Assembly: GCA_947168725.1 (NCBI GenBank) | Contig: CAMVNA010000004.1 | Span: forward strand, 10,110-74,109 | Length of the DNA stretch: 64,000 bases | Origin: an uncultured bacterium | GTDB lineage: Bacteria > Patescibacteriota > Gracilibacteria > Absconditabacterales > Absconditicoccaceae | Direction of reading: 5' to 3' | Part shown: positions 6,775-54,445 of the stretch, one piece after another | How positions within the stretch are numbered: position 1 is the stretch's first letter | Layout of the letters: each line of letters begins with the position of its first letter | Made by a program: the position numbers and the translations under genes | Notes under the pieces: model-generated | The model's database searches: none | What the model was told of the DNA's origin: nothing | Seen by the model: the letters and a program-made list of their open reading frames with translations, nothing else

Positions 6775-7461
6775 ATGTATATTCACATAATCACTATTTT
6801 CCCAGAATTATTTGATTCATTTTTTTCTACATCATTACTAGCAAAAGCACAAGAAAAATGAATTCTGAAAGTGGATTTTTGTAATCCTAGACAATTCTGC
6901 ACAGATAAGCATCAACAAATCGATGACGAAATATACTGATGATGAGTGTGAATGCTAATAAAAGCTCAACCAATAATCGATGCCGTTGAATCTATTATCA
7001 AGAATAACAATCTCAAAAATTCAGATTTTAAAATTATCTTCCCTTCCCCTGCTAAAGAAGTTTTTAATCAAAAACTCTCTTACACATTTTCCAAACAAGA
7101 ACACTTAATTTTTGTATGCTGAAGATATGAATGAATAGATTATCGTCGAGAATTATATATACAAAAACATTATCCAGAACAATTCGAAAAAATTTCATTA
7201 TGACAATTCATCCTACTCTGATGAGAAGTTGCAACTATGACAATGATTGAATCAATTTCTAGACTTATTCCTTGAGTAATTAAAGAATCTGAAAGTTGGC
7301 AAAACGAAAGTTATTCTTTAAAAGAAAATATGCAAAACCTTGAAGAGCCTAATTACACTAGACCAGAAATCGTAGAATGATTCTCTGTGCCCGAAATACT
7401 TTTAACTTGAAATTCTGAAGAAATTGAAATGCGAAGAAAAGAAAACACAAAAACCATATAA
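6775..7461 (+). CDS. trmD: tRNA (guanine37-N1)-methyltransferase TrmD
   Basis: MYIHIITIFPELFDSF..., IDDEIYGGGVGMLIK and FVCGRYEGIDYR, with the conserved Gly residues encoded by TGA. Confidence 0.9.
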
Positions 7462-7500: not shown

Positions 7501-7535
7501 AAAAAAAGTCCTCGGATGGAAACATGCCGAGGACT
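7501..7535 (-). terminator. rho-independent terminator of the minus-strand RNA
   Basis: A perfect 9-bp stem (agtcctcgg/ccgaggact) followed by a T7 run when read on the minus strand. Confidence 0.7.
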
Positions 7536-7720
7536 GGTGCTAGCGTCTTGGAAGTGCGCGCAAAAAGCTTGGACCCAAACGAGCAGGATTATACAAACAG
7601 CCTTAAGACTGATGCTACCAAATCTACGACCAAGTAGGGCACAAGAATTAACCCCGTAGAGAGATATACGCTAGCACAACATATTGGTGTACACTCATAA
7701 GACTCAAAATTCGTGCATGG
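7501..7720 (-). ncRNA. structured small RNA of unknown class (6S-like or SRP-like are untested guesses)
   Basis: A GC-rich island in an AT-rich intergenic region. On the minus strand, a 10-bp closing helix (GTGCTAGCGT...ACGCTAGCAC) is followed by the terminator hairpin AGTCCTCGG-N11-CCGAGGACT and T7. No ORF is present. The 5' end is uncertain. Confidence 0.55.
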
Positions 7721-7859: not shown

Positions 7860-9746
<1,887 letters not shown>

Positions 9747-20444: not shown

Positions 20445-20551
20445 TAATTCAATAAACAAAATAAAAATCTGAAAAGAATGATACTGTTTGAACGCACAAT
20501 TTCAAGTTTTTATAAAATAATTCTCAAAAATAAATTTTCGTACAAAAAAAG

Positions 20552-20580
20552 TTGCAAAATTTTACAAAATGTATTATAAT
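20552..20580 (+). promoter_or_regulatory. sigma70-type promoter (TTGCAA-N17-TATAAT)
   Basis: gTTGCAAaattttacaaaatgtatTATAAT lies 33 nt upstream of the ATG at 20613. Confidence 0.55.
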
Positions 20581-20612
20581 TAGGAACAAAGATTTATACA
20601 ATTTCATTTTTA

Positions 20613-23755: not shown

Positions 23756-23909
23756 TATGCCCTACTTTTTAACAATTAAAGTAGATACTACATTATACCT
23801 AAATACTACATAAAAAGCAAAAAATTACTGACTTTTTATGTTTTTACACAATTTAGATATGTTTAAATAAAAATGTCAATCCATTTATAAGATAAAATGT
23901 TCCAAAAAT

Positions 23910-23938
23910 TTGCAAATTTTCACATTTTAGTCTATAAT
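23910..23938 (+). promoter_or_regulatory. strong sigma70-type promoter of the 23.9-kb RNA
   Basis: aaaaatTTGCAAattttcacattttagtcTATAAT, with a 17-nt spacer. It has the same A-tract/TTGxxAAA context as the effector-gene promoters. Confidence 0.6.
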
Positions 23939-23944
23939 ATACAC

Positions 23945-24210
23945 GAGATAAGTTACTTACCGTAAGGTTCTACCCACACAGTATTCCCTTATACTAGGTT
24001 GCTTACCTCAAGGATGTATTCATCCTATTTTCATCTCAGTATACTACCCATTAGACTGGGATGAGTTTAGATCAACCCGAATTGATTTTATTATGGGTCT
24101 TATTATGGGTCAGTATCTTTACCTTGATAGTTTTAAGATAAAGATACCGATCCATATAATGGATCGCCTTTCGGGTTGGTCATGAACGGAAGGATTGCCT
24201 TCCGTTTTTT
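23945..24210 (+). ncRNA. structured RNA of about 265 nt, unknown class
   Basis: Bounded by a consensus promoter and a strong terminator, and GC-richer than its surroundings. Multiple local hairpins are visible (gtatcttta/taaagatac, gatccat/atggatc, aacccgaa/ttcgggtt), plus a tandem 12-mer TTATTATGGGTC x2 at 24088-24111. There is no convincing ORF. I found no tRNA, tmRNA or RNase P signature motifs. Confidence 0.6.
24185..24210 (+). terminator. rho-independent terminator
   Basis: An acggaagg-attg-ccttccgt hairpin followed by T6. Confidence 0.8.
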
Positions 24211-24947: not shown

Positions 24948-26234
24948 TTATTTATCAGAAAATCTTGGAATTAGTAGAGAATTATCTTTCAAAGTTAAGT
25001 GGTCAATTCACTGTAAAATAAACGATACTAATGTTGTGGCATAACTTCCAGTAGGTAAAAAGAACTGCAATTTGATATCATCATTATCCCATTCAAATTT
25101 CAAATCTGGGACTTTGATAAACAGCACTCTTCTCACTCACCACAAATTATATATTTTACAAACCTGTTGCATTCATTCATCAAATTCAGCTAAATTAAGT
25201 AACTGATTATCACGAATACGAGCTTTGGTTCACTCAAATGGTAACAACAAATTCCATCATAACATTGGTCAGGTTGGGAATCGTTTATTCTCATCATATT
25301 GTTCAACATCAAACTGTCATTCTGAGGCTTTAGCCGAAGCCCCGCCAACGGGGTAAAAATCTTGTGCATTAACCTCTCCCTCCCAACTAGTCGAGATTCC
25401 CTCTCCTATTAGGAGAGGGTTAGGGTGAGGTTCAGGTTCAAAAAAATTCAAATCAGATTTTTCTTTTTTTAATTTTTGGTAATCAAATGGATAAATTTTC
25501 TGAGAATCATAAACCGCAGTTTTCACTCAATTTGAATTAAATCTATCCACCAAAATATCTCATTGCAAGAGAAATAGTCACTTCTCCCAGCGGTTTAGTA
25601 CATATTCATTAAAATACATACTCGGATATGCCTGCAGAAGGAACCTCAAATGATATGGTAAATCTGATTCTTTTAATTTTCATTTTTCATTAAATTCTTC
25701 TGCCAACTGTTTCAAACGGTCTTTTGCTTCATAAAAGTTCTTCTTTCATTTTCCAAATCTTTGCATTCCAAAGCAATTTGGAAATCATTTATCAATTATT
25801 TTTTGCACATTATTTTCAATCTGACTTTTTATTTCTTTTGAAATATTTTGCCTAGCACGCAAACGAATTTCAAATTTATTTCACAGATTACTAGCCACTT
25901 TTAGTCAAAATTCATTATAAGTCTTTTCTAAAATTCTGACTTTTTTTCATAGAGTTTGGATAAATAGCTCTTCTCATCATATCTTATTTAAAGAACGCTG
26001 TGAAATAGAAATCCATTGTCTTGTAATTCACGCTTTATCTTTAAGTCATGCTATTCCAATTTCATCACGCTGCAGATGAAAATTCTTAGTCAAATCATCC
26101 ACAATATCCATCGTAGTCAAATTTTCTTTTTCAAAAAAAACATATAAGAAATCTCATTTTCACGATGGAACTCATTCTCACAAAACTTCTTCTACAACGA
26201 AATCTTTTGGTTTAGATTTAATCTGAAATAGCAT
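24948..26234 (-). CDS. truD: tRNA pseudouridine13 synthase TruD, carrying an in-frame GC-rich insertion
   Basis: IGIAGLKDKAGITRQW and FPNCFGMQRFG are TruD signatures. The 428-aa code-25 ORF includes track ORF 25317..25526. Confidence 0.85.
25323..25436. repeat. GC-rich palindromic repeat element, copy 1 (inside truD)
   Basis: Three hairpins: ggctt/aagcc, ccccg/cgggg, and a perfect 9-bp palindrome CCCTCTCCT-att-AGGAGAGGG at 25399-25419. These are followed by TTAGGGTGAGGTT. The GC content contrasts sharply with the host gene. It is related to the element at 43478-43538. Confidence 0.7.
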
Positions 26235-32418: not shown

Positions 32419-32447
32419 TTGATTTTTTTGATAATTATATGTATAAT
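32419..32447 (+). promoter_or_regulatory. sigma70-type promoter (TTGATT-N17-TATAAT)
   Basis: The track ATG at 32439 lies inside this promoter, so the ATG at 32484 is preferred as the start. Confidence 0.5.
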
Positions 32448-32483
32448 CATTATAGTTTTTTAATTAATATCAAATTTTTATTA

Positions 32484-33875
32484 ATGGATAATATAGAACT
32501 ACTCAAATTAGAAGCAGATGAAATCAAAAAGTCATTAAATGAATTAAAAAATAATATTTCTATTTCTGAAGATGATAAAAGAAATAAAGCAAATCTACTA
32601 AATAGACGAGCGGAAAAAACAAAACAAAAAATTCAAAAAGAAATAGATTCTTTAACTGACAAAACAGATGAAGAATCGAAGAAGAAAAAAGAAGAAGCTG
32701 AAGCTCTTTTAAATAGTTTTAATGATATCACTGCCTTATATAATTCTATCATAAATCCTTCCTCAAACCCATGAACTCATGATTCAAGAACTCAAAGTTC
32801 TGAGCAAACACCAACTGAAAATAAAAACATATTTACAACAGCTACAGATTGGATAAAGACCCAACGAAACAATATATTAGATACAAAAAAACGAAAAGAA
32901 GAGTGACGAGAGAATTGATTTCGTTTAGCATGATTTGCAGCAACATGAATATGAGCACTTGGTCTAGCATATAAATGAGCAAAAAGCTTACGGAATTGGG
33001 CTTTTTGAAGTGATAAGAAAAAAGAAAAAACAGAATCTAAAAAAAAGAAAAAGAAATTTGGTGACAAATGGTATGGTAAGTTACTAAAATGGGCTGGAAT
33101 CACAACAGCAGCATGAGGATGAATTTATTTTTTAGGTAAGCATTTTAATTTATGGTGAAGTACAGACAATAATACAGACAATAATACAGAAAACCAACCA
33201 GCACAACAACAAGATAAAACTACAGAAAACTCTGAAGAAAAATCGAATGAAACAAAAGACTCAAAAGAGAGTTTTCAACCAACATCAGACAAAATATCAA
33301 ATGAAATGTTTGAGCAACTATTAAAAATGGAAGGAAAACACAAACAAGGCAACAACACCCTCGTCGCAAAAACTGGTAAACAATTTTGAGAAAAATTTCC
33401 TACATGACCTTTTGGTATGGTCTATAAACATATAGACAACGAAGGAAACTTACTTAAAAAAGCTATTCCTTTCAAAGAATGAGAAGAGGTAACAGAAGAA
33501 TGGGGAAGAAAAAATGCAAAAGCCTGCTATGACAAAAGAGCCAAAGAAATAAAGGAGGCATTCGATAATAAATGATACAAGTTATCACAAGATCAACTTG
33601 ATGCTCTTACATCTACATGCGGAGGAACATCTAAATCAAGAAAAAATTGTTTAAATTTTGTCCTGGAAAATTGGAACAATCAAAAAAAAGTCGTTGACTA
33701 CATCAGTACTCATTCCACTACTGCAGCATGAAATCATCAAGTTCAGCCTGGACTAGTTTACCGTAGAAAATTCGAAGCTGACTGGTTCGTATGAAACAAA
33801 ATGACTTTTGCAGAACATAGATCAATGCAAAAAAAATGAAAAAACACAAATCCTAATTACAGTCATTTAGCATAA
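32484..33875 (+). CDS. modular envelope protein 1: coiled-coil N-module + two Gly/Ala-rich TM segments + GH24 (phage/T4-type) lysozyme-like C-domain
   Basis: 463 aa. N-module MDNIELLKLEADEIKKSLNELK...ALYNSIINP. TM segments LAGFAATGIGALGLAY and WAGITTAAGGGIYFLG. The C-domain reads LLKMEGKHKQ...PFGMVYKH...QPGLVYRRKFEADWF, with the GLxxRRxxE..F ending typical of GH24 lysozymes. Confidence 0.7.
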
Positions 33876-33917
33876 ATAAATCAATCCATACAACTAATAT
33901 CAAAATATTTACAATAA

Positions 33918-34613
33918 TTATTTTCAAAAATTCTGACTCTCTAAACTATCATTCCACCGCTCAATAGCTTTTTCAAACTCCTGAACCGTAAACTGAGGAC
34001 AATACAAATCTGTAAAATAAAGCTGAGCATATCAAATTCGCCAAAGCATAAAACCTGACAACCTTTTGGCCAATTTTTGCTTTGTCCTAATAACCAAATC
34101 AACCGTTGGCAATCATCAAAAATCCATATACTTCTCTAAATTTTCTTTATTAATTTTTTCTCAAGAATCGTTTAATTTTTTCATTGCTCTCAAGATTTCA
34201 TCCTGTCATCCATAATTCACAGCTAAAACAAATATTCTCGAACTTTCTAAAAATTTAAATTCAGATTCTTTTTCCTCTAAAAAGTTTACCAAATGAGTCG
34301 GCAAACCAGATTTATCTCATGCTACACGAAAATTAACATGATTTTTACGCATCATATCATACAAATTTTCAGTAATCCTTTTATACAAATTAAAAAGATA
34401 ATTTAATTCCATTTTAGTTCTATTTTTTAAATTTTCCGTACTTAATCACCATAAAGTAAACACTTCAATAGTAGTATTTTCAAAAATATGAACAGCAAGT
34501 TCAATACATCTCTGAAAACCTTCTAAATGTCATTCCAAACTAGCCTTTCATAATTCTTTTGCCCAAGTTCTATTTCCATCAGGAATTAACGCTACATGTT
34601 TTGGATATTGCAT
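33918..34613 (-). CDS. uppS: undecaprenyl diphosphate synthase (isoprenyl transferase)
   Basis: HVALIPDGNRTWAKE...FTLWGLSTENLKNR...AVNYGGQDEI...DLVIRTKQKLAKRLSGFMLW. Confidence 0.9.
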
Positions 34614-34742
34614 TCAAAAAAACTAATATAAAACAAAGAAAATATATCAAATCAGATTATTTATTCAAGAATAGTATTTACACCAATAAATGATTTAATT
34701 CTCTTCCAATAAAAGAACTTTCAAAAAAAGTACCCCCTATTT

Positions 34743-34770
34743 TTGCATTTTTTTTAATTATGGATATAAT
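34743..34770 (+). promoter_or_regulatory. sigma70-type promoter (TTGCAT-N16-TATAAT)
   Basis: ttTTGCATtttttttaattatggaTATAAT lies 33 nt upstream of the ATG at 34803. Confidence 0.55.
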
Positions 34771-34802
34771 TGATTTGAATTGTTTAATTTCATAAAAATG
34801 AT

Positions 34803-36359
34803 ATGAACGATAATATTGACCTCTTAAAAACAGAGGTAGATAAAATCAAAAAATCATTAAATGAACTAAAAGATAATATCACTTTTTCTGAAACAGAAAA
34901 AAAAGACCAAGCTGAAATTCTAAACAAACAAGCAGAAGTAACAAAACAAAAAATTCAGAAAGAAATAGATTTTTTAGCGAACAAAACGGATGAAGAATCA
35001 AAAAGAAAAAAGGAAGAAGCTGAAGCTCTTTTAATTAGTTGTAATGATATCACCGCCCTATATAATTCTATCATAAATCCTTCTACAAGCTCAACAACTC
35101 AAAGTCCCAGTCAATCACCCACTGAGAGCACAAACATATTTACAAAAGCAAAAGATTGGATAAAAAACCAACGAAACAGCATCCTAGACAGGGGAAAGTG
35201 GAAAACAGAATGATGAAAAAATTTATTACGTGCAGCATGAGGTGCAACTTCACTTGTTCTGTTATATAAATGAGCTAAGAAATTATGGAATTGGGCATTT
35301 TGAGACAATGAGAAAGAAGATAACAACGAAAATTACGAAAGTAAAGAAAACACGAGTGAAAACGATGAAGAAAAAACAGAAGTAAGAACAAATGAAGAAA
35401 CAAATGAAGAAGAAAATAACAATAATGACAATTATGCGGAAACAACTGAAGGCAATACTAAAGAAGAAAAGAAAGAAAGCATCTGGAGTAAACTGTGGTG
35501 AAAAGCTTTAGCTTGGTTATGAATTGCACCTGCTGCTTGAACCGCTGCTGCCGCCTGAGCTGCTACCGCCTGAGCTACTGATAAAGAATCAGATTCATGA
35601 ACAAGCGAAGATGTGGGAAAAGATGAAAGTACATCTAATGAACCTGATAAAGAAAATAGTTCTGATCCTTCTACTAATACAAATGAACCTGAAAATAGTC
35701 CCGATAAAAAAGAATCCAACGAGAACACCACAAAAAAAGATACAAAAAATTCAACTAATTCTAATGAATCTAAAGAAGTAGATAAAGGAAAAAATACTTA
35801 TACTAATCCCATAAGTGGATTAACTTATAAACGTATTGATCAAGTTACAGACCCAGCAGGAAAATTGAGATACTCATGAAAAAGAAGTGGTAAAACTGTA
35901 GCCAATATTTGATGTTTACTAGCTTCTGGATGTACTGTAACCTCTGCTCTCTGCCCAGAAGTAACCTTAACAGATTGTTTTAATAATGTTAGACATTGGA
36001 CCGCCGATAAAGCTGTTGCAAAAATGTCGAACAATAAATGGAAATCGGAAGCTCTTTTATCATGAGAACATGGAAACAGAACAAAGACACAAGAACAAAA
36101 AGCAAAAGAAAAAATAATAGAAAACTTAAAAAAATGATATCCTGCTGTCATCGGTGCCAGACATTCAGGTATTGATGGAATAAATAACAGTATAGTATCA
36201 CAACATTACCGTGCTATTTTAGGTATAAGAACTGAAAATGGGAAGAATGAATTCTTCGTTTGAAATACTTATAAAAATGGATCATGAGGATGGATGGATG
36301 AAGATAAAATATTTAAAAACATGATACACGCTTCTATATTTACTCCAAATCAAGCATAA
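34803..36359 (+). CDS. modular envelope protein 2: same N-module + Gly/Ala-rich TM segments + acidic/Ser-Asn linker + C39-like (papain-fold) Cys peptidase C-domain
   Basis: 518 aa. The N-module is about 75-90 percent identical at DNA level to gene 32484. TM segments GGATSLVLLY and ALAWLGIAPAAGTAAAAGAATAGA. The C-domain has SGCTVTSALC (candidate Cys nucleophile) and SQHYRAILGIR (candidate His). Confidence 0.7.
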
Positions 36360-36394
36360 TAAATAATTTATTTTAATTTTTAATAAAAAATATT

Positions 36395-37786
36395 ATGACA
36401 AAAATCGAACAATTGGAAAGTAAGACATCTCAAATCAAAGATGATTTGAACAAATTAAAAAACGATGTTAATCTTTCAGAAGAACAAAAGAGAGAAAAGG
36501 CTCAAGAAATCTTTACTGGTGCAAAAGATATTGAACTGAAAATTAACGAACTGGAATCTCAAACATGAGAAGGATCACAAAGAGACACAGACAGAGCAAA
36601 ATTACTACTAAAAAATTTTGAAGAAGTAAAGACATTATATAACGATATAATGTGAGAAGAAACTAGGAATCAAAATCTAAATCAAAACAATACAAATCAA
36701 ATAGAGGATAAAGATCAAACAACGAATACTCCAACTTCTGAAGTTCAGGATGAAGACAAATCAATTTTATGAACAATTGGAAACTGGTTCTGAAGTGCAA
36801 AAGAATGGATATGAAACCAATGGTCAGATATATGGAATACAGATAAACGAAAAGAAGATTGACTGAAGAATTGATTACGTACAGCATGATTTTTATGAGC
36901 AGCTGGTTTTATATATGAATGAGCGAAAAGTCTGTGGAATTGGGCTTTTTGAGATGACGAGGAAGAACATGAAGAAAAAACAGAATCTAAAAAAAAGAAA
37001 TCTGGTGATAAACGGTATAGTAAATTGTTAAAATGGGCTGGAATCACAACAGCAGCATGAGGATGAATTTATTTTCTAGGTAAACATTTTAACTTATGGT
37101 GAAATGACACATCTATCGAATCACAAAAACCAGAATCTTCGACAGAAACCCAGATTGAACCTACTTCAGAGAATAAAAATAATAACCAGGAAGAAAAGCC
37201 ACAAACTGATAAAACATCAGAAAAACCAACCACATGAGAGCAAAAGACTGCAGAACAAAAGAATAATAATCAAAAAGAAAACTTACAAGTCAGTAATTCA
37301 TGATATACAACTTGAGAAGACTTAACTAAAAAACAACAAAACATTATGGGACAAAAGCTTAACAAAATAAATTCTCCAATTACAGTAAAAATGGTACAGG
37401 ATTCTTGTAGTACTCATAATGTACCAGTTGAATACTTATTAGGTTTTATGCAAAATGATAGCAGTTTATGAACAAAATGAAAATGAGCAAAAACCCATAA
37501 TCCATGAAATGTATGAAACACCGATAGTTGAGGTACCAAAGATTTTTGAACACGAGAAAAATGAGTGGATGCTTGTGCAGAAAATCTAGAGAAACGTATC
37601 GTCGCCTACTCCAAAGCAAAAAAAGAACATAATTGAAAGTGATTTAATGACTTCCCTACTCCTAAAGAATTAGCCACATGAAAAAGCGAGGGATGAACCA
37701 AATTTTTTGGAGTTTACATGACAAGTAAAACTTGACCAACTAATGTTACAAAAATAATAAATTCTCGAGCTGACTCTTTATCATAA
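36395..37786 (+). CDS. modular envelope protein 3: divergent coiled-coil N-module + the same TM2 block as protein 1 + lysozyme-superfamily-like C-domain
   Basis: 463 aa. LKWAGITTAAGGGIYFLGKHFNLWG is encoded by a block about 94 percent identical to 33081-33159. The C-domain reads VPVEYLLGFMQNDSSLG...HNPGNVGNTD...ACAENLEKRI (SLT/glucosaminidase-like motif order). It is a paralogue of 42072..42890. Confidence 0.65.
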
Positions 37787-42071: not shown

Positions 42072-42890
42072 ATGATAGAAGTCGAGCAAAACAATAATCA
42101 AGAAAAAGAAAGTTATGAAAACACTCTCAAAAAAGTTGAGACAGAGATTGCTGAATTAAATGATGACAATGTAGATAATGACAAGATTGAATTAGACTGA
42201 CTACTCACACAGTGATTTGCGGAATATCTCTGAGCAGAAAAAGCAAAAAAAATCCTTGATTCCATTAGTAATATGGAAGACAAACCTGAATGATTACAAC
42301 AACTTGAAGATTTCCTTAAATCTGCTTCGTTATCTTTGAATCAATGAATAGGTGAAAATGAGAGACAACAAGAAAACCTTATTAAGTGACCTGATAAGTA
42401 TATATATTGATATAATTTAACAGAAAATCATCTAAATAAGATATCAAATACGTTTAAAAAGCTAAACTCTCCATTGGAACCACAAATGATAAAAGATTCT
42501 TGTTTAAATTTTCCTTATCTACCTGCCGAATATCTTTTGTGATTTATGCAAAACGATAGTAGATTATGAACTGCCTGAAAAAGAGCAATAAATAATCATA
42601 ATCCATGAAATGTATGAAATACTGATGACTGAAAAAATAGGTATTTTGAAACACGGGCAGATTGAGTTAATGCTTGCGCAGAAAATTTAAAAAAACGTAT
42701 TGATGCTTATTCTAAAGTAAAAAAAGAACATAATTGAAAATGATTCAACGATTTTCCAACTCCAGAAGAATTAGCAACTTGAAAAGCTAAAGGTTGAACT
42801 AGATTTTTTGGAGTTTATATGACAAATCCTAGTTGACCATCGACTGTTGCGTGAATAGTAAATCATCGAAACAAAAAACTCAGAACATAA
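42072..42890 (+). CDS. short paralogue carrying the lysozyme-superfamily-like C-domain of protein 3
   Basis: 272 aa. LPAEYLLGFMQNDSRLG...HNPGNVGNTDDG...ACAENLKKRIDAYSKVKKEHNGKGFNDFPTPEELATGK, about 78 percent DNA identity to 37420-37780. The N-terminal GLLTQGFAEYLG...LQQLEDFLKS motif is shared with gene 44716. Confidence 0.65.
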
Positions 42891-42971: not shown

Positions 42972-43448
42972 TTATAGATTTAAGCTAGCTAATTCACATT
43001 TATCTCAAATATGGAGTAATCATTTTTCACTAATTAATCATTGATTAATTTCTAGAACATATTGAGCTTCTGTTTTTGGTTTATATGATGGACATTCATC
43101 AGTTTTACAAGGATCCATTTGGATAATATCTACGATTTTCAAATCTGAATCTAATCGAATTCACGCAAGTGGAATAAGTGTATTTTTCATCCAAAACGAA
43201 TAAGTTCACATTTTATCGAAAATAAAAAACATTCAATTTTCATCAGGCAGTGATTCTCTATACATGAGTCATAATTGGCGAGATTCATTATCATCTGCTA
43301 TTTCAATATTGAAACAACTTTCATTACAACAAATCTTTGGAGTTTGATTTTCTGTTTTTCATGCTTCATATTTGAATACGAGAAAAGATGTGATTAAAAG
43401 TAAGATGAATATCGTTATTCAGATTATGATTCTTAATGATTTTTTCAT
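42972..43448 (-). CDS. DUF192 domain protein (membrane-anchored or secreted)
   Basis: An N-terminal TM segment, then ADDNESRQLGLMYRESLPDENGMFFIFDK...FWMKNTLIPLAGIRLD. Confidence 0.65.
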
Positions 43449-43477
43449 GGCATGGTTATACTTGATAAAATTTATGA

Positions 43478-43538
43478 GGTAACCTCACCCACCACTACGT
43501 ATTTTCTCTCTCCTATTAAGAGAGGGGGTGGGGAGAGC
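43478..43538. repeat. GC-rich palindromic repeat element, copy 2 (intergenic)
   Basis: AACCTCACCC...CTCTCTCCT-att-AAGAGAGGGGGTGGGGAGAG. It shares AACCTCACCC, the CTCTCCTAWTARGAGAGGG palindrome and a GGGAGAG tail with the reverse complement of 25323-25436. Confidence 0.65.
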
Positions 43539-43541
43539 TTT

Positions 43542-44234
43542 TTAAACATATCTCCACTCTCCTTCTGATAAATCGTTTGGTAAAGTGTATTGAGCTTCTT
43601 TAATACGCTGTAAATCTATCAAATGATATCATAAGTTTTTAATAACTCTCCTTATATGGCGTTTTTTTCATTCATTTAAAATCACTTTATATATAAGTAG
43701 CTGTTTTGTTGGCTGAATATCCAGGAATTTTAACTGTTCTCATTCATCGATGATTCAGCTTTTTACTTTTTGCTTATCTTCAGCTTTGAATGGGGAAGAA
43801 AGCTGGATGAGATACTCTTTTTCGACTTCAAATTTTGGATGTTCAAATTGGTGGACTAATGATGGAGTGTCTGTAAGCAACACCAATCCACGACTATCCT
43901 TATCCAGACGTCCAATGTAGTACCAATTTTTAAACTGTTCTGGAAGTAATTCATAAATTGTAGCATTATGGGGATCTGATTTGGAAACTACATATCATTT
44001 TGGTTTATTGAAAATAACCAATTTTCATTTCAGTTTGCTACCATCTTCTGAAATTATAATATTTTCTTTACTTCAATTTTCATTTATAAAAATAAGAACA
44101 TCTCCGTTTTCAAGTTCAGATTTAAATGATTCCATTTTTTCATTATTTAAAAAAATCTGACCATTTTGAATGAGTGACACAATTTTACGACGTGATCGTC
44201 ATTTAGAATTTTGCAAAAATGGAATAATTTGCAT
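43542..44234 (-). CDS. pseudouridine synthase, RsuA/RluB family (S4 domain + catalytic domain)
   Basis: SRRKIVSLIQNGQIFLNN (S4-like), VIFNKPKGYVVSKSD and YYIGRLDKDSRGLVLLTDT. Confidence 0.85.
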
Positions 44235-44324
44235 AAAATAGACCAAAATTTAAAGATTCTTTTACATTCTATATGGGTATATTTTTATTTTTTTATTTCA
44301 AGATATAAAAAAGTCCCCAAAAAT

Positions 44325-44353
44325 TTGACAAATTTTATAAATTTGGCTATAAT
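44325..44353 (+). promoter_or_regulatory. consensus promoter AAAAATTTGACAAA-N17-TATAAT
   Basis: TTGACA at 44325-44330 and TATAAT at 44348-44353. Confidence 0.6.
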
Positions 44354-44394
44354 TTAGTAGATAAATTTAATCATTTATAATATCAAAAAACAAA

Positions 44395-44715: not shown

Positions 44716-47103
44716 ATGACTTTTGAACAATTTGGTGAATCTACTGCGGCAACTACTCCATTAGTAACAACAAATGGTGAACCAATTACGCCCGATGGTA
44801 ACGCAACTACAACCACAAATACTGGCGAGACACAAACAACAACTGTTGAACAAGGGCCTGATGCTGATTTAAATCAAAGATATGAAACTGTTAGACAAGA
44901 ACTACTTCAAGTCGGTGGAGTTGATACAAGTGACGATAATATCGAAATCGCTGATTGACTTCTAGATTGAAAATTTGCCGAATATTTACTAAAAAACGAA
45001 ACATCTCTGAACGCGCTGAAATGATTTGTTAATACGATAAAAAAAGATTGACTTAAAAACAAAGCTTGAAATGATTTAAAAAAATTAGAAGACTTCCTAA
45101 ACAACATCTGAAATAATGAGAAGATGGAAAAGGATTTCAAAAAATTTATGGATAAATTACAGAAACCAAAAGATTTACATAAAGTTAAAGAAAAAGAACT
45201 TAGTGCTATCACCATGCACCTATCATTGAATCAAAACGATGCAATGCTTGCATATAAAAGTATGAAAGCCATTCTTGACAACCATCAAAACTTTTTTGGT
45301 ACAGGTATGAAATTGGATGATGTAAATGTTTTTCAAGCTGTTTGGAATTCATTAAAGAATAATTACCAAAATAATGAAACATTCATTGAAGCAGAATACC
45401 CTGGATATTCAGCATTATCTGATAGAGCGATCAGTATTCAAGCATTTCTTATGGCAAATAAATGAATAATATCTTGACCATGACTAGAATGGGAATGAGA
45501 TGAGATAACAGTAGCACATCTAGAGAACAAACCTAACTCTATAGTAAGCAGAGAAGCAATTGTTACTAAACTTAACGAACTCAACAACCAAAGAGTCGCT
45601 AAAAATAAAAGTTTAGTAGAAGCTGTGGACATCAACATACCAACTGCAGACTTTACTAAAACAGCAGAATGAGGGTTAAAGTTTAAATGAACTGAATTCT
45701 CAGCAAATGATGTGATGATGTATAGTGATGAAATAAGTGCGGCAGTTAATGGTGGAGATTTTGTAAATGATAAAGAAAAATGGAGAACTATAAATGAATG
45801 TAGAAATTCATTATATGAAAAAATTAAAGCAAAATTATTAGCTGATCCTTCAGTAGCACAAGAAGGTTCAACAAACAACCCTAGTCAAAACACTAATCCT
45901 GAACAAAACACTAACCCTGGTCAGAACACTAATCCCGAACAAAACACTAACCCTGATCAAAACACTAATCCTGAACAAAACACTAATCCTGATCAAAACA
46001 CTAATCCTGATCAAACTAATGAAACATGATGAGAAAATGTTGAACTTGATGCAAGGTTGAATCTTAAGAGTAGTGTAAAAAATAAACTTGTAGAATTATG
46101 AATTTTCGAAAACGCTGAAAGCCATACAGTAAAAGAACCAGCTATGAAATCTTTTATCGATACCATAAAAGATAAACCATGGAGTGAATTACAAGGTCAA
46201 GGACATGTAGACAAGAGAGCATGGATTGCCACAGTACAAATAGCATTAAATTTTATAGGCGTAAAAAATGAGAAAAGTGAATACAAAGTAAAAACAATTG
46301 ACTGAATACGTGGTAAAGAAACAAGGAGGGTCATCAGAGCATTCCAAAAAGATAACGAATTGGGAGTAGATGGTAAACCATGACCAAAAACTCTTACCAA
46401 AATTTTAGAAACACTTGGATGAATCAGAAGTAGTAATGAATCTACAACGAACAAACCAAATGAAAAAGTTTTTGACTATGATAGTGCTACATCATTAGAT
46501 AATACAAAGGTTCAAGAAATTTTGGATGCTCGTAAAAAATATGATGAATCTGATGAATGAAAAAATGATAATAACGTACGTGTGCTCAAATTAAATGGGC
46601 TTACTAGCCTAACAGAAGAAAATGCTACTGCTCTATCTGCATGGGAATGAAATATACAAGTTAATAAACTATTAACAGATGCAGCTGGTGAAAAAGGTGA
46701 ACAAACCATAACAGTATTAAGCAAGCTAGCACCTAAAGGTGGTAAAGCTATTATCGAGACTTCAGATAAGGATACTTTCGATAAATTGAAAGATAAATGA
46801 TTTGAACTCAAGCTAATAGAGACAACTCAACCTGAGACTCCAACTGAGACTCCAACCGCAACTGAGACTTCAACTGAAACTCCAACCGCAACTGGGACTT
46901 CAACCGAGACTCCAACCGCAACAGAGATTTCAACTGAGACTCCAACCGCAACTGAGACTTCAACTGAGACTTCTGTACAGACTACAACTACAGTGGACAA
47001 CAATAACAGTGTAACTGTTTGATGAGATAACAATTGAACCATTATACAAGATAATGACTCCAGTGTCACCAACAATAGCACAGTAGACGACATGGGAGAC
47101 TAA
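44716..47103 (+). CDS. large surface protein with peptidoglycan-binding (PG_binding_1-like) domain and two tandem-repeat linkers
   Basis: 795 aa, joining track ORFs 44716, 45124 and 45712 in one frame. AWIATVQIALNFIGV...IDGIRGKETRRVIRAFQKDNELGVDGKPGPKTLTKIL is a PG_binding_1 pattern. It carries NTNP(E/D/G)Q and TETPTATETS repeats. Confidence 0.7.
45886..46014 (+). repeat. 18-nt coding tandem repeat (about 7 units, QNTNPE/D)
   Basis: Units of caaaacactaatcctgaa with synonymous or near-synonymous variation. Confidence 0.85.
46831..46972 (+). repeat. 30-nt coding tandem repeat (about 4.5 units, TETPTATETS)
   Basis: Units of actgagacttcaactgagactccaaccgca. The minus-strand track ORF 46827..47093 is its shadow. 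Confidence 0.85.
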
Positions 47104-54372: not shown

Positions 54373-54383
54373 AATCCTAAAAT

Positions 54384-54412
54384 TTGACAAAGTTTAATAT
54401 TTTGTATATAAT
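54384..54412 (+). promoter_or_regulatory. consensus promoter AAAATTTGACAAA-N17-TATAAT
   Basis: TTGACA at 54384-54389 and TATAAT at 54407-54412. Confidence 0.6.
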
Positions 54413-54445
54413 ATTTTATATTATTTATTTTTTTATTAGTAAATA

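Follow-up and report, generated by a model that had tools for sequence, protein, structure and literature searches.

A 64,000-nt stretch of DNA from an uncultured member of the Absconditicoccaceae (the whole stretch is called the window below) contains a truD gene that is interrupted by GC-rich palindromic sequence. The reading that fits the data best, with a probability of roughly 0.8, is that the insert is made of selfish palindromic repeats that are translated and tolerated, and that have stacked up in a hypervariable, permissive part of the TruD-specific domain. By sequence comparison, the insert is best explained as selfish repeat DNA that was not part of the ancestral TruD. We found insertion polymorphism at this site and at a second one, a nested and composite anatomy of the insert, a constraint on the reading frame, and purifying selection on the host gene. 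We also found that the core of one module has the identity of a BoxC/TM repeat, and that copies of it lie in frame in genes of other phyla.

Empty and filled alleles at truD and at a second site

We found that the insert is specific to one lineage. We compared the 120 closest TruD proteins, for which the reported identity was 74-88%, with a gap that comes partly from translation of their TGA codons as W. Seventy-one of the 120 were 391 aa long and had no insert. Six sequences, including the query, were 428 aa long and had the same insert of ~37 aa. Approximately 25 further proteins of other lengths had different peptides in the same alignment columns. We also cut out the segment equivalent to window positions 25475-25285 from the DNA of 46 related loci and compared the lengths. 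The site was empty (80 nt; ...TTTTTTGAACCTGATATTTCAGATAAATGAAATGATTTTGAT...) in 32 loci. It was longer by 60 nt in L007, 63 nt in L137, 75 nt in L142 and L149, 78 nt in L154, 93 nt in L153, 108 nt in L134, 111 nt in the window and in L130-L133, 162 nt in L173, and 198 nt in L135. All of these increments are multiples of 3. They represent at least 8 separable indel events, and the probability of this outcome is ~1.5e-4 if the frame were irrelevant. The same insert was found in several independent assemblies (L130-L134, L173, and L006). The site is a hot spot for different hairpin modules.

An earlier note, made from the sequence of the window without database searches, had proposed a mobile palindrome that is tolerated as a peptide, similar to a repetitive extragenic palindrome (REP) or a MITE (a miniature transposable element with inverted repeats), and had suggested an alignment of orthologues. 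The proposal is borne out by the proteins and loci without the insert and by the presence of the repeat families at other polymorphic sites. The segment is absent from close relatives and is not conserved in distant ones.

The truD frame remains open through the insert. Only one of the six frames through the insert in the window contains no TAA or TAG, and this is the truD frame. The insert peptide (...FFEPEPHPNPLLIGEGISTSWEGEVNAQDFYPVGGASAKASE(G)QFD...) lies in frame within the truD open reading frame (ORF) of 428 codons. The earlier note had described the block as translated in frame with no stop; the frame does read through, but the truD ORF stays in one piece only when TGA codes for Gly (code 25, below). 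A listing of ORFs with translation table 11 breaks truD into fragments, which the recoding of TGA to Gly explains. The product matches Pfam PF01142 (E = 4e-50) and the TruD entries 1SZW, 1SB7, and 1SI7 of the Protein Data Bank (PDB). It contains the catalytic GxKD motif (IAGLKDKAGIT, with TGA as Gly, aligned to FAGQKDKHAVT of E. coli TruD), and the insert is positioned between N- and C-terminal catalytic segments that can be aligned to the solved TruD structures. In comparisons between insert-bearing alleles, the truD flanks had 0.31-0.41 synonymous differences per site (pS) and 0.03-0.04 nonsynonymous differences per site (pN). The resulting pN/pS of ~0.1 in the flanks argues that truD is functional and under purifying selection with the insert in place.

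We found that the insert is a composite of several elements and not a single one. Its limits were taken from alignment to the empty allele L001, from the allele series of 46 loci, and from the GC profile. Windows of 60 nt across 25290-25439 had 47-52% GC, compared to ~30% in the background. A 129-nt region folds into nested hairpins, better than shuffled sequences do, both as DNA (z = -4.2) and as sense-strand RNA (z = -2.7). The 64 kb contain just two perfect GC-rich hairpins, one of them the CCCTCTCCT-ATT-AGGAGAGGG palindrome at 25399-25419; 20 shuffles gave 0-2 such hairpins. The earlier note had reported a GC-rich palindromic block in frame in truD with this perfect palindrome in it, and both descriptions agree with the composition, the folds, the shuffles, and the single open frame. 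It had also treated the block as one element with three hairpins. The hairpins are real, but the block is made of several elements.

On the sense (minus) strand, reading from 25432 down, the order of modules is family A, a spacer, a mini-hairpin, and one arm of family B (Table 1). Family A has the outer blocks AACCTCTCCC (25371-25380) and GGGTGAGGTT (25423-25432), with a main hairpin and a small hairpin between them. In the sense orientation it reads as the outer block AACCTCACCC, TAA, the main hairpin CCCTCTCC-TAATA-GGAGAGGG, the small hairpin CTCGACTAGTTGGG, and the outer block GGGAGAGGTT. The formula for its core is CCCTCTCC-N5-GGAGAGGG-TTA-GGGTGAGG. The mini-hairpin was recognized by comparing the window to L142 and L154, and from the fold. 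The spacer, ATGCACAAGATTTTTA, appears to be a remnant of the central loop of family B, a homology judged by eye. Families A and B are palindromic from end to end; that is, they have terminal inverted repeats, as MITEs do. There was no match to Rfam at gathering score in the window, and the region 25200-25560 gave only noise at E up to 10.

Table 1. Positions of the truD insert, its modules, the second copy of family A, and associated genes in the window
Feature	Position	Strand	Description
truD coding sequence	24948-26234	minus	428 codons including stop, with TGA = Gly; stop-to-stop ORF in which TGA is not a stop
Composite GC-rich insertion	25316-25432	minus	~113 nt; net +111 nt (~37 codons) relative to empty alleles; edges uncertain by a few bases
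Family A element	25371-25432	minus	Y-shaped palindrome, 62 nt; nhmmer E = 1e-15; predicted three-way-junction fold
BoxC/PIT/TMECO-like core	25399-25431	plus	CCCTCTCCT-ATT-AGGAGAGGG-TTA-GGGTGAGGT: C-block, loop, G-block, TTA, mirror G-block
Small hairpin inside family A	25382-25395	minus	Sense CTCGACTAGTTGGG; perfect form CCCGACTAGTCGGG in L130 and L173; GCCACGTAGTGGC instead in L134
Mini-hairpin	25340-25353	minus	14 nt, sense CCCCGTTGGCGGGG; breaks the family B arm; absent where family B stands alone
Spacer	25354-25369	minus	Sense ATGCACAAGATTTTTA; compare ATGCAAATGGATTCTT in L142
Family B palindrome, right arm	25316-25339	minus	Sense CTTCGGCTAAAGCCTCAGAATGAC; single occurrence in the window; common to all filled truD alleles
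Second family A copy	43481-43540	minus	More decayed; nhmmer E = 2e-16; fold z = -2.55
RluB-like pseudouridine synthase gene	43542-44234	minus	Upstream of the second copy; Pfam PF00849, E = 7.5e-19
DUF192 gene	42972-43448	minus	Downstream of the second copy; Pfam PF02643, E = 4e-26
Terminator-like hairpin	43474-43488	minus	GTGAGGTTACCTCAT then AAATTTTATC, made from the end of the second copy; consensus scan, 1 vs 0.2 expected
dnaK	7860-9746	minus	Example of a gene with TGA at invariant Gly

The modules are combined differently in other truD alleles. Family B is complete in L007, L142, L149, and L154 (GTCATTTTGAGCGATAGCGAAAAATCC, ~18 nt, GGATTCTTCGGCTAAAGCCTCAGAATGAC), and a variant is present in L137 and L153. 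L142 and L154, which have family B only, share with the window a distinctive downstream host sequence, AGTTTGATRTTGAACAATATGATGAGAAT (AGTTTGATGTTGAACAATATGATGAGAAT), and because of this the state in the window would be derived most simply from a state with only family B. L173 is of the window type with an additional 51 nt nested in the loop of the main hairpin of family A. The small hairpin of L134 differs from that of the window. The truD gene of L135 (2290-2500) holds a different multi-hairpin module, family C (~110 nt, CCCCTTTATGAAAGGGG...GCTCCTTTCAAAAAGGAGC).

Two minor observations concern the same site. The empty target (e.g., in L136, L150, and L158) reads TTTCAGATAAATGAAA, which is similar to the terminus of family B, CTCAGAATGACA. 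This resemblance may be microhomology, a target preference, or an ambiguity of the exact insertion boundary. A hairpin module of the CCCC(T)TCTAAATCYTCCCC type is nested in the family A loop of L173 (96-208) and lies beside family B in L153 (10878-10920).

We found that family A occupies a second polymorphic site. The hairpin core CTCTCCTAWTARGAGAG occurs in the window at 25401 and 43508 only, and an nhmmer profile aligned 62 nt at the first site and 60 nt at the second, in the same orientation. This agrees with the second copy that the earlier note had located near 43.5 kb. The second copy directly follows the stop codon that ends the RluB-like gene; it is in a 93-nt spacer, upstream of the DUF192 gene. 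The note had described the surrounding genes as convergent and the copy as a possible terminator. Both genes are on the minus strand and are co-directional, not convergent; in favor of a terminator there is one short terminator-like hairpin, a weak signal. The second copy may at most help to terminate or stabilize the upstream transcript.

The spacer between rluB and the DUF192 gene was empty (13 nt) in L192-L194. It was 93-95 nt long with family A in the window, L186, L187, L195, and L196, and 116 nt long with family C in L188-L191 (e.g., L188:3694-3809). In L188 and L189, the gene caller had run the DUF192 gene through family C. Empty alleles exist at both the truD site and the rluB-DUF192 site, alongside alleles that different families have filled; family A was found at both sites, and so was family C. 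Two unrelated polymorphic sites with swapped families are what discrete mobile repeat units would produce. Of the two copies of family A in the 64 kb, one is intergenic and one is inside truD. Family B is also intergenic, upstream of a hydrolase gene in L005, L007, L143, and L171, and in a few other places.

Family A and the BoxC/PIT/TMECO repeats

The core of family A corresponds to the BoxC repeat, later described as the potential intrastrand triplex (PIT) element or TMECO (Bachellier et al. 1990s; Hoyne et al. 2000; Holder et al. 2015, PMC4666352). The TMECO pattern is 5'-CCCTCNCCC N3-6 GGGNGAGGG N3 GGGNGAGGG-3', and in type A the second loop is TTA (PMC4666352). There are 23 copies in E. 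coli K-12, all reported as intergenic, and 3610 copies across 262 proteobacterial genomes; related G/C-rich motifs are abundant in cyanobacteria (PMC4666352). TMECO forms an intrastrand triplex in vitro and is tied to variable regions, with no nearby transposase and no known function (PMC4666352). That large study was only able to suggest horizontal transfer (PMC4666352).

Family A has the same order of blocks, with a near-identical C-block (CCCTCTCC) and G-block (GGAGAGGG), the TTA loop, and the mirror G-block (GGGTGAGG). A 19-nt string is shared with E. coli copies, and GGAGAGGGTTAGGGTGAGG is common to the family A core in the window and the copies in E. coli, one of which, in the gntP-fimH spacer, reads CCCTCACCCTAACCCTCGCCCCTCCGGGGAGAGGGTTAGGGTGAGGGG. 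Both kinds of element are often part of a larger palindrome with a fourth block and lie in locally variable regions; the published elements have no associated transposase, and none was found for family A in the loci and ORFs searched here. The window blocks CCCTCTCCT, AGGAGAGGG, and GGGTGAGGT each fit 8/9 positions of the TMECO pattern. A relaxed regular expression with 8-nt blocks and a TTA loop matches 25400-25430 on the plus strand (CCTCTCCTATTAGGAGAGGGTTAGGGTGAGG) and also matches L131, L133, and L130. The G-blocks are mirror-related: GGGTGAGG reversed is GGAGTGGG, which has 7 positions identical to GGAGAGGG and one T opposite A. Of 16 two-armed family A copies (from L011-L129 and the window), 9 have the outer blocks CCTCTCCC...GGGTGAGG, in which a non-complementary T/T position is kept. 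This position suits the third strand of a triplex better than a plain stem. By analogy with the published elements, the core may be able to form either a hairpin or an intrastrand triplex; the folding computed here is that of the hairpin.

There are also differences. The blocks in the window are 8 nt rather than 9, and an extra small hairpin between the blocks gives a Y shape. The host is a 30%-GC, code-25 bacterium of the Patescibacteria type, in contrast to the 262 proteobacterial genomes of the published strict census. One copy is inside a coding sequence, whereas TMECO of E. coli K-12 is reported as intergenic. Taken together, the block comparisons indicate that family A is a BoxC/TM-type element in variant form and not a strict TMECO.

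Family A is present in many phyla. We scanned one genome per species for the pattern CCTCNCCC N2-30 CTCTCCTANTANGAGAGG and found at least 119 loci, a number conditioned on the pattern that was chosen. Among the matches listed, hosts were cyanobacteria (Nostoc, Calothrix, and Xenococcaceae), Acinetobacter, Ignavibacteria, Bacteroidota, Chloroflexota, Treponema, Leptospiraceae, and several Patescibacteria, with cyanobacteria among the richest. Other Patescibacteria genomes had from at least 3 to at least 7 matches each. In its basic form, the unit is a ~45-49-nt palindrome. The Y-shaped variant, which has the extra small hairpin (xCAC-GWA-GTGx), was found in both copies in the window and in the Patescibacteria loci L094, L022, and L011. 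A scan of viral contigs for the core gave two matches, both without the outer blocks, and we judged these to be due to chance. The bacterium RGIG2479 (goat jejunum) has a family-B-type arm (ATTCTTCG...TCAGAATGAC) at L078:7580-7609, in the same genome as the family A matches L041 and L078, so that these two families are also found together outside the truD lineage. Literature searches with the exact hairpin, peptide, and family B strings returned nothing relevant, and we found no published account of families B or C.

We found that residence in a reading frame is common for family A. There were at least 121 pattern matches, and 36 of those listed were inside stop-to-stop ORFs 150 aa or longer. 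Among these 36 copies, at least 20 were clearly internal, and they read PLL(L/I/V)GEGxG or xSPxPSPxRRG. In-frame residence is made easy by the main hairpin, through which two of three frames are open whichever strand is read. In IleRS, Pfam domains lie on both sides of the element in L054 (1516-4542) and L074 (2-1870), at the same position but in opposite orientations and in unrelated genomes. In methylases of the Eco57I/MmeI type, domains lie on both sides in L047 (1750-5193), L106 (820-4722), and L119, and such methylases carry the element at a similar position in at least 3 phyla. Pfam domains also flank the element on both sides in UvrB (L098), HypF (L076), PheT (L110), the urease alpha subunit (L023), and a large kinase (L112). 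A copy on a Nostoc plasmid is inside the pglX coding sequence annotated in RefSeq. The copies in IleRS, methylases, and pglX could be due to a preference for certain sites, or to horizontal transfer of the genes that carry them. In one ORF from Ignavibacteria UBA2360 (L080:1540-1780), the palindrome is within a unit of ~207 nt that is repeated in tandem (TSPPSPLLIGEGGNDSEI...), which shows that tandem amplification of the element can take place within coding sequence.

Other repeat systems share some of these properties. According to PMC10969869, which summarizes Ogata et al. 2000 and 2002, Rickettsia palindromic elements (RPEs) are palindromes of ~100-150 nt that lie in frame in housekeeping genes, where they are translated into additional stretches of peptide that the protein fold accommodates, and are also intergenic. 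As in the RPEs described there, the palindromic insert in truD is in frame, leaves the ORF intact, and is in an AT-rich, reduced host. In the same account, each RPE is a single element of ~150 bp with a conserved peptide; in truD there is a stack of 14-70-nt modules from different families. The truD site also differs in its repeated insertions at one codon position and in the phylum and genetic code of its host. We liken the truD insert in behavior to RPEs, its closest functional analogue, implying no relationship in sequence.

Like MITEs, REPs, and REPINs (ERIC, Correia, and REPIN-RAYT; PMC3184786, PMC3116915), the elements are short, non-coding, palindromic, dispersed, and polymorphic for presence and absence. 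They cluster and nest as bacterial interspersed mosaic elements (BIMEs) do, and they can sit at the 3' ends of genes. They differ in that no target-site duplication, parent insertion sequence, or RAYT was found in the loci searched, and in that the core of family A is conserved across phyla, whereas REPs are usually species-specific. The composite in truD also brings to mind systems beyond these. In 2008, Elhai and colleagues reportedly described cyanobacterial small dispersed repeats (SDRs), hairpins some tens of nt long that insert into each other as well as into conserved genes. They are like the modules here in being very small, nested hairpin elements, and we set them beside family A by that description and not by sequence. 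In yeast mitochondria, GC clusters are GC-rich palindromic mini-elements that have invaded an AT-rich genome, coding regions included. The byp elements of Magnusiomyces mitochondria and the segment in T4 gene 60 are skipped by the ribosome, and byp elements need not be in frame. In contrast, the frame is strictly kept at the truD insert.

Origin of the insert and alternative explanations

We suggest that, in one sub-lineage, GC-rich palindromes came to use a variable, acidic part of the TruD-specific domain as a landing pad. Family B (~70 nt, GTCATTYTGAG...CTCAGAATGAC) would have entered truD first. The 62-nt Y-shaped family A would later have replaced the left arm of family B, and the 14-nt mini-hairpin would then have landed in the remaining arm; this order is read from the alleles compared above. 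Because truD is still needed, only insertions of 3n nt without TAA or TAG would survive, and the insert would consequently be transcribed and translated as ~37 residues. The second copy would be the same element in a 3'-untranslated or intergenic position. Our best guess for the movement, a tentative one, is a hairpin-dependent copy-in without target-site duplication, in which existing palindromes attract new ones. This is suggested by the nesting in loops, the replacement of an arm, the lack of target-site duplications, and the lack of a linked transposase in the loci searched. The copy-in could take place by template switching, by short-tract conversion from other copies, or by a trans-acting single-strand enzyme of the HUH type.

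Several results weigh against tolerated, translated repeats. PDB sequence and profile searches align only the catalytic halves of TruD and skip the TruD-specific domain, which holds the insert. An AlphaFold model of the homologue P0003, with TGA mistranslated as W and a shallow alignment, had a mean predicted local distance difference test (pLDDT) score of 36 and was unusable. The ~37 extra residues (HPNPLLIGEGISTSWEGEVNAQDFYPVGGASAKASEG) presumably form a disordered surface loop; this is drawn only from the hypervariability of the empty site, because the PDB alignments and the model say nothing there. Likewise, it is the intact frame that points to translation of the insert, including the peptide segment NPLLIGEGISTSWEGEVNAQDFYPVGGASAK. 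We found no other family A in ~660 kb of mostly syntenic DNA of the lineage except for one partial match. No target-site duplication was seen at truD or in the rluB-DUF192 spacer when filled and empty alleles were compared, at a resolution limited by the divergence of the empty alleles. An all-against-all BLAST of 1589 ORFs from 119 element loci found only host genes to be recurrent, with no transposase, and Pfam searches of 10 small ORFs in the window found no mobilizing enzyme or parent insertion sequence. In a partial search, no RAYT was seen in the window or in the 119 element loci. The strict 9-nt TMECO regular expression had no match in the window, and the E. coli control (L197) matched on both strands. 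The insert is also 4-5 times less diverged than the truD flanks. We compared window positions 25320-25432 to L130, L132, and L133, in three comparisons that are not independent. There were 2-3 differences in the 113 nt of the insert and 101-126 in 1174 nt of the flanks (~10%), with Fisher p-values of 0.028 (L132), 0.004 (L133), and 0.005 (L130). Synonymous differences in the insert numbered 0-1, compared to 9-12 expected from the flanks (Poisson p 1.6e-3 to 2e-5). The trough in divergence was limited to the insert plus or minus 20-40 nt. Plain neutral junk is unlikely, because a GC-rich insert in an AT-biased genome should decay faster than its flanks, not slower. Selection on structure, structure-templated correction or conversion, or a recent short-tract recombinational spread are possible causes of the slow divergence.

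The low divergence bears on two alternatives. It could be a matter of youth, if the insert recently spread among diverged strains by short-tract recombination or conversion with no selection on sequence. The trough reaches 20-40 nt past the insert in some pairs, the small hairpin of L134 was swapped wholesale (GCCACGTAGTGGC vs CTCGACTAGTTGGG) in an element that is otherwise alike, and in L133 the central loop base is flipped (TAATA vs TATTA). However, the downstream host sequence AGTTTGATGTTGAACAATATGATGAGAAT shared with L142 and L154 points to vertical descent of the filled site, and no donor copy identical to that in truD was found; we regard recent spread as possible but doubtful. It is somewhat less probable, and in our judgment unlikely, that the insert has a function at the level of nucleic acid that selection maintains, such as slowing of the ribosome or polymerase, a protein-binding site, or a triplex or cruciform that promotes recombination. 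The deficit of synonymous differences and the low divergence are confined to the insert and its near flanks, which counts in favor of such a function. Of the six sites in the insert that vary, 5 either lie in loops (three sites) or form G.U pairs on the sense RNA (two sites); the sixth produces a C.A mismatch. The ~50% GC retained in a 30%-GC genome, the near-identity of the core across phyla, and the T/T position kept in 9 of 16 two-armed copies point the same way. Yet most relatives do well with an empty truD site, different and unrelated modules fill it, and tests in E. coli in vivo, as summarized in PMC4666352, gave no role as promoter, terminator, or polymerase block. Recent spread or conversion could give the low divergence equally well, and the three comparisons are not independent. 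The earlier note had also raised removal of the segment at the RNA or protein level, by which it would be absent from mature TruD as a small intron, by translational bypassing, or by protein excision. A cluster of GC-rich hairpins in an AT-rich gene is superficially like the bypass elements of yeast mitochondria. We consider removal very improbable: all alleles are of 3n length and stop-free with truD as the sole open frame, none of which a removed segment needs; Rfam gave no intron or ribozyme match even at E = 10; 37 aa are far too few for an intein; and the same palindrome is read through in frame, as PLLxGEG or PSPxRRG, in many unrelated genes and phyla. An error of assembly or binning, in which a chimeric join brought foreign GC-rich DNA into truD, would account for a composition foreign to the genome and for a core motif that is common in other bacteria. 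It is barely credible, since the same insert, with flanks diverged by 8-11%, is present in at least 6 independent contigs from different samples and assemblers, the insert is in frame, and the halves of truD on both sides are collinear.

The core repeat family (BoxC/PIT/TMECO) and the behavior inside genes (with RPEs as precedent) are already known. The host with an altered code, the Y-shaped variant, the nested hot spot of several families with its allele series, the widespread in-frame copies, and the slow divergence of the insert appear to be new. Although BoxC/PIT elements were described as early as the 1990s, where they come from, what they do, and how they spread have not been established. 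Empty and filled alleles at two sites, together with nesting, are direct comparative evidence for gain as discrete units. Copies inside essential-type genes, as probably translated insertions, extend the RPE phenomenon to a wider range of hosts, including a bacterium with an altered code. The unexpectedly slow change of sequence inside the insert offers a way to tell selection from conversion. Inserts of this kind inflate the lengths of proteins and add low-complexity segments to alignments, and with TGA as Gly they break gene calling in Patescibacteria bins.

A broader proposal, which we offer as speculation and think may well be wrong, is that BoxC/PIT/triplex palindromes are a pan-bacterial class of tiny, transposase-independent mobile DNA whose preferred landing sites are existing hairpins or their immediate neighborhood, and which routinely colonizes coding sequences in frame and resists decay. 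They would move within and between genomes, from E. coli to cyanobacteria to code-25 Patescibacteria, with copies in coding sequences read as PLLxGEGxG or PSPxRRG. Decay would be resisted by structure-templated self-correction or by selection on DNA or RNA structure. If this were true, the process would be on record at the truD hot spot as a natural time series.

Genetic code and other features of the window

We conclude that the genome uses code 25 (TGA = Gly), of the Gracilibacteria/Absconditabacteria type, because TGA sits on invariant glycines and outnumbers GGN. Invariant Gly positions occupied by TGA are found in TruD (IA-G-LKDKA) and DnaK (gIDLgTTNS, DLggGTFD, and LVgGSTRMP). In 56 called genes, TGA is the main Gly codon (842 TGA vs 492 GGN). 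Stop-to-stop ORFs of at least 100 aa total 89 kb with TGA read through, compared to 15 kb with TGA as a stop. The window has 29.7% GC overall. Gly inside the GC-rich truD insert is written as GGN, which fits a foreign origin. Public protein sets give TGA as Trp in these genes, and ~7% of TruD residues are wrong as a result. The rumen or gut origin of the samples was taken from contig and sample names only.

Several other features were observed. Besides the hairpin in truD, the window has one more perfect GC-rich hairpin, AACGGAAGG-ATTG-CCTTCCGTT at 24185-24206, which is followed by TTTTTC and resembles an ordinary intrinsic terminator. Among the non-repeat islands outside genes, the one richest in GC (up to 60%; 7501-7603) is in the spacer between dnaK and a gene ending at 7461, and it starts with the hairpin GTCCTCGG...CCGAGGAC. 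It had no match in Rfam even at E = 0.1, and it could represent a small RNA that has escaped annotation, or a terminator together with a leader. A conserved motif of ~50 nt, CCAAAAATTTGACAAA...TATAAT, is upstream of genes at 20544-20594, 23902-23952, 44317-44367, and 54376-54426, and resembles a strong promoter cassette of the canonical -35/-10 kind.

Three tandem paralogous genes (478, 518, and 463 aa) at 32439-37786 have coiled-coil N-termini and share segments with 70-85% nt identity. Their C-terminal module of ~350 nt is also present in the gene at 42072-42890 (37414-37768 vs 42512-42869). These paralogues look like a diversifying family of secreted or surface proteins. An ORF of 795 aa at 44716-47103 contains in-frame tandem repeats of 18 nt and of 12+18 nt, at 45859-46033 and 46823-47001. 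The repeats (NP(S/G/E)QNT and TETPTA types) form a low-complexity linker rich in Thr, Pro, and Asn.

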